From positions 4,512,001 to 4,576,000 of the forward strand of contig OY760175.1 in NCBI GenBank assembly GCA_963663165.1: 64,000 nt of DNA, in the 5' to 3' direction. This stretch comes from an uncultured Desulfospira sp. (GTDB taxonomy: Bacteria; Desulfobacterota; Desulfobacteria; Desulfobacterales; Desulfobacteraceae). The notes beneath the pieces are model-generated. The model saw only the letters and a program-made list of their open reading frames with translations, was not told the origin of the DNA and did not search any database. Shown piece after piece: positions 16,069 through 58,532 of the stretch; positions within the stretch are counted from its first letter, which is position 1, and each line of letters opens with the position of its first letter. Position numbers and translations under genes: made by a program.

Positions 16069-19000
16069 TTATTCCTGTTTGCAGCCCAAATGGACCACAA
16101 AATAGGGAAAATCCAGGTGATTGATCCGGCCGTCTCCGTTGAAATCGGCCTTTGAGTCGGTCTCATAATCCGGATCACTGGCATTCAGTTCACGCCCCAT
16201 ACGGCTGCTGAAGAAAAGGATATCCTGGCCGTCCACATCCCCGTCTGAGTCCAGGTCCGCATCTGAGCATGATCCTTTGAACAGATAGCCGTAGATATGG
16301 GCGAACAGTACAAGATCCAGTTTATCAATGACCCCGTCGCTGTTAAAGTCGGCCTTGGCGTCAAAGCCGTCATCGGCCGAAGTCAGATTGAGCAGGGACA
16401 TGAGCCGGAAAAGATCGGTGCCGTCGATGTCCAGGTCCCCGTCCAGGTCGCCGTATTTAGGCGGATAGGGCGGCCTGCTGGAGGCATTGAGTGGATCGGT
16501 TTGGGCGTAAAATTCTTCGCCGTCGGTATAACTGTCCTTGTCCGTGTCACTGTCAAAGGGATCGGTGCCGTAGGAAATTTCCAGGCCGTTGGTCAGATCG
16601 TCGTTGTCGGCATCCCCATCTTCGGCAAATGTAGTGAACTGCCAGACCGGGCTTTCCGTGACCTGGTTATAACTGTCCGTGGCCAGGACCTGCCACCAGT
16701 AGGTGGTGCTGAATCCCTCTAATGCCAGCAGGCATCCGGTATCCGGCAGGTTTTTACAAGTTTCATCAATGGTAAAGCTGCCATCTTCAGTTTTGTACTG
16801 GACGGAATACATGACCGTATCCCCCTCATCCGGATCACCCCCGGTCCAGGAGAGGGCCAGATCAACAGAGACATCGGTGTCGCCATTTGAAGGCGTGGGG
16901 GATGAAGGTGCTGATGGCTTATGGTTGACGGTAACGGCACCGGCCGCATAAGCGGTGACGGTGCTGGTGCCATCGGCAATCTGGGCGTAAATGTAATAGG
17001 TGCCGCCGGCCATGCCGGAAAGGTTCCATTCATAGGTGTCGGACTCATCGGAATCTTCTGAAATACCCGAAACAATCAGGGTGCCGTCCTCTCCTGAATC
17101 GTTATCGTCATAGTACAGGGAGATCTGGGCATCGGAATCCGGGTCGGTATCGTCCCAGGAAATGGCCAGCACGGTATCTGAACCGGACACTGTAATAACC
17201 GTACCCGTGTCCGGTGCGGTCAAGGTGATGGCGGGCGGATCATCGGTGGTATCCTCCTTGACGAAAAAGGCCTGAACCTCGCTCCAGTCGCCTTCAATGC
17301 CGTGGGCATCCATAAGTTTGGCCCGCCAATAGTACCAGGTGGCGTTTTCAAGTTCCTGGGAAACCATCAGGGCAAGGTCGTCTGAGGATTCTTCAACCAC
17401 CAGATCGGTTAGGTCTTTATCGGTGTAAACCTCAACCATCATCTCAACGGTATCATTGTCGGGTTCTTCCACCGGGTGGACAGATAATTCAGGGGTCAGG
17501 GTATCCACCCATGCCAGGGCCCCCGGATTTTTGAGTACAGGGGTGCCCGGGGCATCGTTGTAGGTATTAATAAAAAATTGACCCACCACCCATTGGCTTG
17601 CCGACTCGTTGTCACGGGATCTGGCCCGCCAGTAGTAAGTGGTGTTGTCGTTTAAGCCTTGAACCTGCCACTGGGCGGTGCCGTCGGAGATGGTCATCTC
17701 TTGTGCCGTTGAAAAATCCTTTGAAACATCAATCTGAAAATCATACTCAACATCGGCCCCTTCAGGGTCTGTGACTAACCCGACAGACAGCACCACCGCT
17801 GTATTTTTAACTTCTTCGCCCACTGCCGGTGAATCAATTTCTGGAACCGGCGGGGTCTGGTTGGATGTATCCGGAGTAAAGGCAAAAACCTCACTTTGGA
17901 CCGCATTTCCATCAGTATCCTCAACGGTTGCCTGCCAGTAATACGTGCTGCCGTCTGCAAGGTCTTCACTGACCTGGAAAGAGACCATGCCGGAGGCTTC
18001 ATCTAGGGTGCCCTGGCCGGAACAGACCGGATTGGAAAGATCCTGGTTCAGGGATATCGTAAAGGTATAGGTCAGGGAATCCTTTTCCGGATCGGTACTA
18101 TACCCGGACACAAGGACCGGGGTGAGTGAATCCACACTGCCGGAATCTTCCGGCGTCAGCAGTTCCGGTATTCCCGGCGGATCATTGGTTTCACTGACCA
18201 GGAATGATCCGTGGGTCCACAGAGAATAGGCCGTGCCGTCATAGGCCCTGGCCCGCCAGTAATAAGTCTGGTTTTCCACAAGGGTTTCAGTGACGGTCCA
18301 GGGAACCATATTACCCGATTCCGGAAGGCCGCTTTCACGTTCCACAAGGGCGGTGTACCCTTCGTCAGAGAAAAGCTCAAATTCATAGGTTAATGTGTCC
18401 CCGTCAGCGTCTGTGCTGCAAAGAACGGACAATTCCGGATAAAGGGAAGATACAACCCCGTCAACTTCAGGGGCATTGACAACCGGAACGCTGGGGGCGT
18501 TTTCGGTTCCGGTGGGATTGGTGCCGTTTAAAAATTCATCCAGATCTGAAATGCCGTCACCGTCAAAGTCGCCGGTGCCGTCCCGGTCCAGGGTGCCGAA
18601 ATGTTCCTCCTCCCAGTCATCGTCCATGCCGTCACAGTCTATATCATTGACAGGGCAGATGGTCAGGGTGGCGGTCTGGGAGTCGGTCAGGGCTCCGTCC
18701 GAGGCCTTGAACTTGATGGCATAGGATCCGGCCTGGCCGGCGGCCGGGGTCCACATAAAAAGACCTGTGCCGTCGCCGTTGTCTTCAAAGGATGCCCCTG
18801 CCGGTAAGGATGAGGTGGAAAGGGCGGGAATCGTCCCGTTGGCATCACTTGCCTCAACAATAAAGTTGAGCTGTTCTTCTTCGCTGCGCTGCCGGTCAGG
18901 GATATACTGCAGGACCGGGGCGGTGGCAAGGACCGACGCATCTTCAAATACAATGGTGTAGGTCCCCGGGGTGTTCACATCAAACAGATAAACATAGCAG

Positions 19001-20268
19001 TCCCAGGGGTCATCCTTTTCTCTGGTTTTATAGAGCCAGACATTGTCTTCGGATATGGCTTTGCCGTCGGAACGGGTGGCGGACAGGATCACCTTCTCAT
19101 CGGAGAAAGGGTCCTCAAGCTTGACCACCATGGGGCCGGTGGTGGCCGGCACGGTCAGGGTATAGGTGGCCTGGGTGCCTGAGGTGCTGCTTTTTACCAG
19201 TGTGGCGGATGCACTCCGGTCGGTGACGCCGGTATTCACATTGTCTGATTCATAGACAGTGTATGCGGTCCCGTCCAGGGCCAGAAAATCCCGGATCTCG
19301 TCACGGCCGGGCAGGTCCACCAGCACATCATGGACCAGAAAATGGGTGTTCACCGAATCGATCAAAGAGGTCAGCTCCCCGCCCAGCTCGTCGGAATGGG
19401 TAAACTCGGCGGTAAACTCCACAAACTTGCCGTAAAGGGAACAGGTCATGAGCCATCGGGCAGTACCGGCCTCATTGGGCCCAATGTCCCCAAAGTCCAC
19501 CAGAAGGCTTGCGGTCTCCGCTTCCCCGTTCACCTCGCTGCCCTGGATAAAAAAGTTGATCAAAAGCCCCTGCTCGTTTTCCACGATCTTGGGCTGGGCC
19601 GATTCGATTTTCAGAGACCTGGCCGCACCGTCTCCCTGGTTGCTTACCCTCACCCCCAACGAAAAGGGGATTTCTTCTTCTATTTCGGTGGTAAAGGGAT
19701 CATCCCCGTATACGTCGTTGGGAATGAAATAATCCAGCACCAGATCCGGCATGGGCTTGACATAGATATAGTCCGGCGAAACTTCAGTGACATGCTCTTG
19801 CCCGCCAATGGTATAGATCAGCCGAGCCCCCACATAGTAAAGGGTGCCGGACTCAAGGCCGTTGCTGGCCCCCTGGGCCGGGATGATCAGCCAGTGGATA
19901 TCGGCCACGGTGTCGGGTTCCACAACGCCGTCCCCGTTAACGTCGTCAATGTTGCTCATGGTATCGATCCGGATGAAAAACAGGGCGTCGGTATTGCTCG
20001 AATCCGATGAGGCCAGGACATTGGTGCCCTCTTCATCGGCAAAGGAGACTTGGATCTCCACATCTTCCAAAGCGACATGGGTCAGCCCGTTGGTAATTTT
20101 CATGTGGGCATCAAAGGCCTGGCGTTCCAGGGTCAGTTCCTGCTCAATCTGGATTTTAACCCGGGCGCATACGGTCTCGTCGGCCATGGCAGACAAGGGA
20201 ATCCATAACCCCATGAAAAAGAGCATCATCAGGGCCGGACTCAGGACGGAATATTTGGATTTTTTCAT
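16069..20268 (-). CDS. Secreted Rhs-partner protein A1 (~1,400 aa): conserved N-terminal domain, cadherin/He_PIG-like Ig, TSP3-like Ca motifs, FN3 repeats, C-terminal dockerin-like motifs
   Basis: Signal peptide MKKSKY...AMA; VCARVKIQIEQELTLERQAF; DNGDGTG.F.WTP; D.DGDG; repeated YYWRAR; four D.D.DG.ID..D motifs; RBS aaggga before ATG 20268. Confidence 0.85.
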   Translation of the reverse strand: MKKSKYSVLSPALMMLFFMGLWIPLSAMADETVCARVKIQIEQELTLERQAFDAHMKITNGLTHVALEDVEIQVSFADEEGTNVLASSDSSNTDALFFIRIDTMSNIDDVNGDGVVEPDTVADIHWLIIPAQGASNGLESGTLYYVGARLIYTIGGQEHVTEVSPDYIYVKPMPDLVLDYFIPNDVYGDDPFTTEIEEEIPFSLGVRVSNQGDGAARSLKIESAQPKIVENEQGLLINFFIQGSEVNGEAETASLLVDFGDIGPNEAGTARWLMTCSLYGKFVEFTAEFTHSDELGGELTSLIDSVNTHFLVHDVLVDLPGRDEIRDFLALDGTAYTVYESDNVNTGVTDRSASATLVKSSTSGTQATYTLTVPATTGPMVVKLEDPFSDEKVILSATRSDGKAISEDNVWLYKTREKDDPWDCYVYLFDVNTPGTYTIVFEDASVLATAPVLQYIPDRQRSEEEQLNFIVEASDANGTIPALSTSSLPAGASFEDNGDGTGLFMWTPAAGQAGSYAIKFKASDGALTDSQTATLTICPVNDIDCDGMDDDWEEEHFGTLDRDGTGDFDGDGISDLDEFLNGTNPTGTENAPSVPVVNAPEVDGVVSSLYPELSVLCSTDADGDTLTYEFELFSDEGYTALVERESGLPESGNMVPWTVTETLVENQTYYWRARAYDGTAYSLWTHGSFLVSETNDPPGIPELLTPEDSGSVDSLTPVLVSGYSTDPEKDSLTYTFTISLNQDLSNPVCSGQGTLDEASGMVSFQVSEDLADGSTYYWQATVEDTDGNAVQSEVFAFTPDTSNQTPPVPEIDSPAVGEEVKNTAVVLSVGLVTDPEGADVEYDFQIDVSKDFSTAQEMTISDGTAQWQVQGLNDNTTYYWRARSRDNESASQWVVGQFFINTYNDAPGTPVLKNPGALAWVDTLTPELSVHPVEEPDNDTVEMMVEVYTDKDLTDLVVEESSDDLALMVSQELENATWYYWRAKLMDAHGIEGDWSEVQAFFVKEDTTDDPPAITLTAPDTGTVITVSGSDTVLAISWDDTDPDSDAQISLYYDDNDSGEDGTLIVSGISEDSDESDTYEWNLSGMAGGTYYIYAQIADGTSTVTAYAAGAVTVNHKPSAPSSPTPSNGDTDVSVDLALSWTGGDPDEGDTVMYSVQYKTEDGSFTIDETCKNLPDTGCLLALEGFSTTYWWQVLATDSYNQVTESPVWQFTTFAEDGDADNDDLTNGLEISYGTDPFDSDTDKDSYTDGEEFYAQTDPLNASSRPPYPPKYGDLDGDLDIDGTDLFRLMSLLNLTSADDGFDAKADFNSDGVIDKLDLVLFAHIYGYLFKGSCSDADLDSDGDVDGQDILFFSSRMGRELNASDPDYETDSKADFNGDGRINHLDFPYFVVHLGCKQE

Positions 20269-20287
20269 TGTTTTTCCCTTGATCAAT

Positions 20288-58394: not shown

Positions 58395-58410
58395 AGCAAT
58401 AAACGTGCCG
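58395..58410 (-). promoter_or_regulatory. Sigma54 (-24/-12) promoter of Rhs unit 2
   Basis: Minus strand CGGCAC-GTTTA-TTGCT. Confidence 0.72.
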
Positions 58411-58478
58411 AAAAAAATGGTATTCTGGAAAGCCGGATCTGTGGGGTTTACGAAATTTTTGGGAATTTTTTTCTATAG

Positions 58479-58532
58479 AAAAAATGTAATCATTTTATGT
58501 AAAAAATTTCTCAGTGTGTAAAAAATTTCTCA
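58479..58532. promoter_or_regulatory. Enhancer-like block with two identical 16-mers
   Basis: tgtaaaaaatttctca at 58498-58513 and 58517-58532 (TGT-N10-TCA). Confidence 0.68.

Follow-up and report, generated by a model that had tools for sequence, protein, structure and literature searches.

How Rhs toxins exported by the Sec route are held on the surface of Gram-negative cells and delivered to their targets without a type VI secretion system (T6SS) is an open question, and it is raised by a locus from the genome of an uncultured Desulfospira sp. (G000, contig C1). The locus lies in a 64,000-nt stretch of this contig (the window) and consists of two tandem units, each with a gene for a giant Rhs protein (R) followed by a gene for a partner protein (B); a transglutaminase gene (T) leads unit 2. 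The best explanation as a whole, and a fairly probable one, is that R and B are the rejoined parts of a split adhesin, which would be anchored through cohesins and display an encapsulated polymorphic tip, likely antibacterial. The genes and their parts are as follows:

57396..58298, minus strand: T, 300 aa, an exported or membrane-anchored transglutaminase-like protein with a C201-H239-D254 triad.
41594..57337, minus strand: R2, 5247 aa, with a signal-like N-terminus, six Gly-rich repeats of ~270 aa, an immunoglobulin-like (Ig)/FN3 stalk, a junction segment, an Rhs core and a Cys-rich tip.
45677..46525, minus strand: junction segment of R2, first half of the split module, 79% identical to the R1 segment.
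41597..42019, minus strand: tip of R2, 141 aa, from a rare Cys-rich beta family.
37296..41570, minus strand: B2, 1424 aa, with a signal peptide, junction domain, Ig/FN3 stalk, TSP3-like repeats and two dockerins (37335-37682).
20288..36652, minus strand: R1, 5454 aa, with a plan like that of R2 and seven Gly-rich repeats of ~260 aa.
24410..25255, minus strand: junction segment of R1 (aa 3800-4081), with the predicted donor strand at aa 3905-3936 (24845-24940) and the invariant C4041.
20726..24235, minus strand: Rhs/YD shell of R1, terminating in DPIG-X39-DPFG (D5263, D5306), a likely autoprotease.
20291..20725, minus strand: tip of R1, 145 aa, a predicted eight-strand beta meander with 13 family-invariant cysteines.
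16069..20268, minus strand: B1, 1399 aa, with a junction domain at aa 29-330 (19279-20184), the invariant C34 and two dockerins (16108-16455).

The relationship between R and B was revealed by long homologues of the B domain, 120 of which were listed out of 179 (homologous loci and proteins are designated by L- and P-numbers, respectively). The B domain is internal in 50 of the listed proteins, and all 50 contain the pre-core segment of R upstream of it (E 1e-39 to 9e-22); this segment was found in none of the 70 with an N-terminal B domain. None of the 50 fused homologues has an Rhs core; their two halves are joined by a variable stretch that in many cases is Cys-rich. This position is taken in the window by the Rhs shell and the tip, after which B begins anew, with a separate signal peptide. 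The fused form occurs in matching order in L025. In L024 (8064-19115) the first half ends in a Hint domain, not in an Rhs core, and overlaps the B gene, after which a rhodanese-like gene is located. Three-gene versions, composed of the scaffold half, a separate gene for the Rhs shell and B, were found in L082/L123, L100, L115, L116 and L118; in four of these five (L082, L100, L115 and L116) the separate shell has a signal-like start. Comparison of the sequences indicates that a giant Ig-rich surface protein has been divided into R and B, with the Rhs shell and the tip carried by its first half. In its fused form, the junction module was found in PVC (Planctomycetes-Verrucomicrobia-Chlamydiae) bacteria, in cyanobacteria, in one archaeon and in a shrimp record; it belongs to no Pfam or PDB family, though present in several phyla. 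It should be mentioned that the archaeal copy is from a member of Methanosarcinaceae (P0106) and that the shrimp record (P0031) includes teneurin-type EGF domains.

Modeling of the two halves agrees with the fusion pattern. The complex of R1 3800-4081 with B1 29-330 was predicted with an ipSAE of 0.89 in three runs, the best of three controls giving 0.00; partner pLDDT was 86-87 and at least 90% of contacts agreed between runs. In a rough calibration made with our own alignments, 116 of 157 solved pairs attained this ipSAE mark, as did 2 of 215 mismatches. In the predicted interface, R 3905-3936 runs antiparallel to B 30-62, completing Ig-like domains, and an AlphaFold2 model of the fused protein P0114 (12 sequences) has two 28-residue strands around a low-confidence insert. 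The Ig-like domains align across the split with 8b5l_q (Z 10.7, root-mean-square deviation 2.8, 106 residues aligned over 99-468). Because sequence searches gave no solved relative of the junction module and the whole-fold TM does not exceed 0.18, the score is unlikely to be a memory of a similar complex; it supports rather than proves binding, since halves of split genes tend to pass. C4041 of R (20/20) and C34 of B (56/56) are conserved, both are in the predicted interface list, and they likely form a disulfide. We consider it very likely that the modeled R-B joint forms, and the surface-assembled complex of R and B proposed in a preliminary description of this DNA is supported. An Ig-like domain completed by a strand that another chain supplies, or that comes from across an insert, is known from donor-strand complementation in pili and from the split MG6 domain of complement C3. 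The R-B joint differs from these in being a one-to-one link of two different giant proteins and has no sequence or whole-fold match. The archaeal Ig module described in PMC8416519 is unrelated.

Analysis of R homologues revealed a constant N-terminal carrier with variable C-terminal tips, as in polymorphic toxins. The automated count gave at least 30 distinct tips, several others being visible in the loci and not caught; among these 30, only the window family clearly recurred, and there was one further weak related pair. Downstream room was available for 29 tips, 26 of them outside the window family, and after these 26 we found an ORF (open reading frame) of 54-255 aa in at most 21 cases, B in two, nothing in two and a longer gene in one. 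In a first set, Pfam named 3 of 23 tips (PLA2, Ntox16 and a weak CHAP) and 2 of 11 downstream neighbors (DUF6714 and Sel1); PLA2, PT-HINT, DUF7587 and a weak Imm11 were found in a second set of tips and neighbors. TNT-, HNH- and peptidase-like motifs were seen by eye in the tips of L111, L112, L117 and L121, for which Pfam gave no match. Orphan cassettes, typical of polymorphic toxin systems, are present in the family outside the window. In the same genome (G000:C1 1,204,104-1,269,208; L013-L016) a paralogous B-T-R locus precedes insertion sequences and an array of orphan Rhs cassettes (1.227-1.269 Mb). Every cassette has a tip of its own, one of them a phospholipase A2 (1.233 Mb), together with a small ORF that is in most cases hydrophobic; divergently upstream of this locus there is an NtrC-like two-component pair. 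Orphan tip cassettes also occur in L110, L112, L113, L114, L116 and L119; none was found in the window.

Judged by their sequences, the family has the tips and cassettes of polymorphic toxins, the window copies lack an immunity gene, and the small downstream genes elsewhere are probably protective. The family would thus very probably represent a Sec-exported platform for polymorphic toxins. The suggestion of the preliminary description that such loci serve a non-toxic or matrix-building function is not supported for the family, given the 30 tips, the PLA2, Ntox16 and PT-HINT domains, the small ORFs and the orphan cassettes. Immunity genes and nuclease tips in homologues had been named there as findings that would speak against it, and this has largely come about: polymorphic tips and small ORFs (up to 21 of 26) were indeed revealed, but no nuclease confirmed by Pfam.

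The attachment of the complex is suggested by the dockerins of B. The genome contains 20 dockerin matches, exosortases and four secretins. Both of its cohesin matches are PEP-CTERM proteins and have two more paralogues (G000:C1 1306171, 4706862, 5634927 and 5967253); dockerin-bearing genes are located a few kb or less from three of these four cohesin-PEP-CTERM genes. Dockerin genes were found no more than 8 kb from a PEP-CTERM gene in 10 of 17 cases versus 1.7 at random positions, a figure inflated by clustering. In L035 a cohesin-PEP-CTERM gene directly follows a dockerin-bearing B; the PEP-CTERM neighbor in L063 received no support as a cohesin. Both parts of a cohesin-dockerin pair are therefore encoded, dockerins on the cargo (B) and cohesins bearing PEP-CTERM in the genome, and it is reasonably probable that the former bind the latter. 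It should be mentioned that the genome encodes ~17 dockerin proteins along with 58 PEP-CTERM-like ORFs, which points to display in the manner of a cellulosome in this Gram-negative bacterium.

To describe the distribution of the locus, species genomes were scanned with the B domain. This gave at least 564 confirmed matches, of which the best 80 were kept, so that locus counts are biased toward close relatives. Among these 80, the closest locus with a title is L026, labeled Desulfospira sp. T is present in 53 of 79 of the best loci (one of the 80 was dropped by the ORF filter) and in 46 of the 64 with 1.5 kb upstream. The R junction segment was found in 23 of the 28 genomes that contain B, although two of the 28 are one genome. 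A rhodanese-like family with signal-like N-termini accounts for 22 of 29 mid-sized genes located directly after B. By gene order, the conserved operon is composed of T, B, often the rhodanese-like gene, and R, which supports the triad of the preliminary description as a conserved one. The rhodanese-like gene is absent from the window, and the single unlinked copy in the genome (G000:C1 2,442,632-2,443,564) may act in trans. Host taxa include Desulfobacterota, Gammaproteobacteria, Nitrospirae, Elusimicrobia, Planctomycetales and Myxococcota; cultured carriers include Desulfoluna spongiiphila (L064), Methylomonas defluvii (L101) and Halioxenophilus (L082). The B N-terminal domain has six copies in the source genome; it was detected in 8 of 60 relatives, as well as in 5 of 250 genomes from the phylum. 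In L029, L066, L076, L099 and L103 small mobile-looking genes (DUF559, 23S rRNA IVP, PD-(D/E)XK) are located between B and the next gene of the operon.

On this basis the following mechanism can be proposed. R and B would be exported by Sec and fold in the periplasm, where R strand 3905-3936 is predicted to complete Ig-like domains with B 30-62, probably with a disulfide. The complex may then leave through one of the secretins of the genome and be captured on cohesin-PEP-CTERM proteins through the B dockerins. As in known Rhs proteins, the DPxG motif would cleave the tip, which stays in the shell until contact, while the N-terminal Gly-rich repeats likely bind the target or a surface. The weakest step is that of T, which may cross-link or process the complex during assembly; its assignment as a cross-linker is tentative. 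The window tip itself could be a membrane-directed, disulfide-bonded effector for which immunity is not required. A more elaborate version, which we regard as doubtful, is a contact weapon in which the ancient strand-swap joint is a plug-in coupling between an Rhs capsule/adhesin arm and an interchangeable anchor arm docking on cohesin-PEP-CTERM in the manner of cellulosomes, T seals the assembly and the tip is a disulfide-stapled beta pore-former without immunity. A dedicated sealing by T would explain the three-gene versions with a separate secreted capsule.

The window tip belongs to a very small family. Four matches, all of them Rhs C-termini, were obtained with a profile among 1.84 billion representatives, and the 13 cysteines are invariant in eight aligned sequences (the matches, L060 and three copies from the genome). 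Context is available for five loci (R1, R2, L011, L018 and L060), in each of which the tip runs directly into B, with no small gene. The strands of the modeled eight-strand meander alternate hydrophobic and polar faces. A fold search gave no Foldseek match at E ≤0.001, the best VIA match had Z 6.1 (outer-membrane barrels, weak), and Atlas matches for the homologue P0123 were all below 0.9. Kinship of the tip to the inserts of fused proteins or to the orphan tip at 1.2446 Mb, suspected by eye, received no support from a hidden Markov model of the tip. Toxicity of the window tip to some target is somewhat probable, and the leading reading, at slightly less than an even chance, is a disulfide-bonded membrane-directed beta effector; no immunity protein would be needed because the tip would fold only after export and the producer would lack the target.

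The alternatives concern both this tip and the locus as a whole. The window copies could have been domesticated: R and B would still be joined, with a tip that is a non-toxic adhesin, a self-recognition tag or a matrix subunit, and with T cross-linking the complex into a surface matrix. This is the view of the preliminary description, confined to the window copies. In agreement with this, the tip family is conserved and not swapped across three paralogues of the genome (39-47% identical), the small gene is absent in 5/5 loci with context, single-chain homologues without Rhs have Cys-rich inserts at the equivalent position, and the locus adjoins genes associated with PEP-CTERM and exopolysaccharide (EPS). 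However, both catalytic aspartates of the Rhs DPxG motif are retained in the window copies, all four library matches of the tip are Rhs C-termini, and its alternating strand faces and top fold matches, although weak, point to membrane barrels. We therefore consider domestication unlikely; a membrane-directed effector harmless to the producer is narrowly favored over a non-toxic tip, and a non-toxic role may apply to the window tip only, not to the family. A still less probable reading is that the tip is aimed at eukaryotes, grazers or a host, and hence needs no immunity. The Tox-HDC passage of PMC3482391, according to which immunity-less toxins are typically directed at distant targets, and the disulfide-rich extracellular fold of the tip are compatible with it, while the small downstream genes in the family at large are not what it would predict.

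Finally, R could be an ordinary T6SS Rhs effector and B an unrelated neighbor. The genome does have a VgrG gene, and the R core resembles solved T6SS Rhs shells (RhsP, RhsA, Tse5 and Tre23 among PDB matches), with which it shares the DPxG autoprotease motif in its paired form. The usual spacing between the two DPxG motifs of Rhs effectors is ~18 residues, and R1 has 39. In contrast to these effectors, R has a signal-like N-terminus, a 4,100-residue adhesin region and no PAAR, VgrG or chaperone link: PAAR (PF05488) was not found in the genome, the single VgrG is located ~2 Mb from the locus, and general domain scans, none aimed at EagR, detected no EagR-type chaperone among the neighbors. Together with the fusion pattern (50/50) and the complex score of 0.89, this makes the reading highly improbable, and it is already strongly disfavored. 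Export by Sec without a T6SS link, as well as the absence of PAAR, VgrG and an immunity ORF from the window, had been described before and are supported.

Several observations weigh against the split, cohesin-anchored toxin display that we prefer. A distance of 30-49 kb separates the window B genes from the nearest PEP-CTERM gene, and the window encodes no cohesin. Dockerin tails were found in only 6 of 60 complete B homologues, which points to different anchoring elsewhere; the dockerin-tagged partner of the preliminary description is real in B1 and B2, which pass the cut-off, but lineage-specific. The 21 small ORFs after 26 tips are an upper bound, because spurious cases are among them: one is a remnant of Rhs, one lies over an insertion sequence and one is 54 aa long. 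For 20 of 23 tips and 9 of 11 downstream ORFs no Pfam family was found, and L012 and L028 are R-to-B loci without a small gene that carry non-window tips. The window tip has no Pfam match, a model pLDDT of 66 and generic barrel matches only. The disulfide was derived from interface lists, not from coordinates, and the co-variation count in fused proteins is crude. T is absent from 26 of 79 loci (many of them short), and neither unit 1 nor the paralogue at 3.556 Mb has it.

Comparison with known systems revealed partial similarities. The toxins secreted by Sec and by type II secretion (T2SS) in the passages of PMC3482391 resemble the R family in signal peptide, Rhs repeats, variable tips, small downstream genes and orphan cassettes. 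The transglutaminase domains described there are inactive and fused in front of Rhs (Zhang et al., 2012), whereas T is a separate gene and its C-H-D triad is intact in 53 of 54 homologues; partner B, the rhodanese-like gene and the split junction do not appear in those passages. Teneurin-like proteins, according to parts of PMC13018210, are Sec-exported and have a surface YD shell and an autocleaved polymorphic tip; they are rare and patchy, also occurring in Thermodesulfobacteriota, some of their tips are predicted to be like outer membrane proteins, and one membrane-active tip is toxic only with a signal peptide. They differ in being a single chain with FN-plug and NHL, with their own lipoprotein or S-layer anchor and nearly always an immunity gene, while R relies on a second protein, B; a Pfam scan found no NHL domain in R1 or R2, and teneurin-like structures match the late part of the R core only. 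The system is neither a T6SS effector nor a teneurin-like protein. With cellulosomes and the PEP-CTERM/exosortase system (as far as covered by the passages of PMC1569441) it shares tandem dockerins, sorted cohesins and a sigma-54 site with an upstream TTTACA; in contrast to the cellulosome, the bacterium is Gram-negative, the cohesin is fused to PEP-CTERM and the cargo consists of an Rhs complex.

No description of the operon, the junction or the anchor was found in the full-text literature, a coverage outside which subscription journals and supplements lie, and no paper was found in it that combines cohesin, dockerin and PEP-CTERM. The display apparatus of a polymorphic toxin system is thus apparently undescribed, as the preliminary description had supposed. 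The locus provides a testable apparatus with named residues (R 3905-3936/B 30-62; C4041/C34), a candidate anchor and a conserved enzyme. Cohesin-PEP-CTERM anchors would extend display of the cellulosome type to Gram-negative sulfate reducers, and the strand-swap pair with its likely disulfide is a possible tool for protein coupling.

The layout of the locus was confirmed by its coordinates: the two tandem units of ~21.2 kb described earlier measure 21,227 bp from one B stop to the next, and the R stop is separated from the ATG of B by 19 bp in unit 1 and 23 bp in unit 2. There is no room for any ORF in these gaps, and ORFs of at least 25 aa downstream of B1 and B2 appear spurious. In a Pfam and NCBIfam scan of the window proteins, Rhs repeats/core (TIGR03696 and PF05593 in R), FN3/Ig, Dockerin_1 and Transglut_core (PF01841 in T, E 9e-21) exceeded the cut-offs. 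The Gly-rich repeat gave a weak match to the AgmC N-terminus in R2 only (E 5e-6), and a search for a solved relative found none; by analogy, the repeat may form a polyglycine-II bundle. A hydrophobic 12-mer is present at the N-terminus of all five proteins (Kyte-Doolittle 2.3-3.1). The signal-like N-termini noted previously are thereby supported, except that those of T homologues resemble signal anchors more than signal peptides.

The units are 62% identical in R, 77% in B and 39% in the tips, which identifies them as old paralogues. The term "duplicated" used before is correct as to the two units but not as to a recent event; recent duplication or an assembly artefact is ruled out by the 62-77% identity and by an independent R1 orthologue (P0121, 85%). 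The same-genus genome G001 contains only the unit-2 orthologue (T-R2-B2), 83-97% identical in most blocks and followed by insertion-sequence-like ORFs. A chimeric origin of its B from units 1 and 2 was not clear, this B being mostly unit-2-like. Two further relatives were found in the source genome. At G000:C1 3,552,752-3,568,785 (L011) we revealed a stand-alone gene for the Gly-rich domain, R with a third copy of the tip family, a short B and a PEP-CTERM gene, without T. A divergent B at G000:C1 1,394,819-1,399,492 lacks the N-terminal cysteine; insertion sequences are located upstream of it, and R is absent from its vicinity.

Both units are preceded by putative promoters with a conserved upstream box in common:

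58395..58411, minus strand: sigma-54 (-24/-12) type site, 113 bp before T, conserved in G001.
58480..58535, minus strand: repeated box containing TTTACA, a likely activator site, common to the unit-1 promoter.
37000..37040, minus strand: TTTACA-containing box of the unit-1 promoter.
36906..36922, minus strand: sigma-54 type site, 270 bp before R1.

Sigma-54-type sites occur in the genome at ~1.1 per 64 kb, and upstream of T homologues they were found in 7 of 51 regions versus 0.43 expected, in agreement with the sigma-54 control assumed earlier. The TTTACA box is separated from the sigma-54 site by 86 and 97 nt; the range given for PrsK/PrsR in the passages of PMC1569441 is 32-92 nt. Control of the locus by PrsR was rejected: no orthologue over the cut-off was found in the genome (best 413 bits, cut-off 502.6), and the box is absent from most of its PEP-CTERM genes.

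Upstream of T, at 58582-60782 of the window, there are a FemAB-like gene, assigned below cut-off to the XrtA/PEP-CTERM type, and an unassigned gene for a 431-aa protein, and a cluster of PEP-CTERM genes begins ~3 kb past the right end of the window. Unit 1 is flanked at 12199-15619 by a KaiC-like/HTH/cupin regulator and a glutamate-synthase-like FMN protein, the synteny of which is kept in G001.

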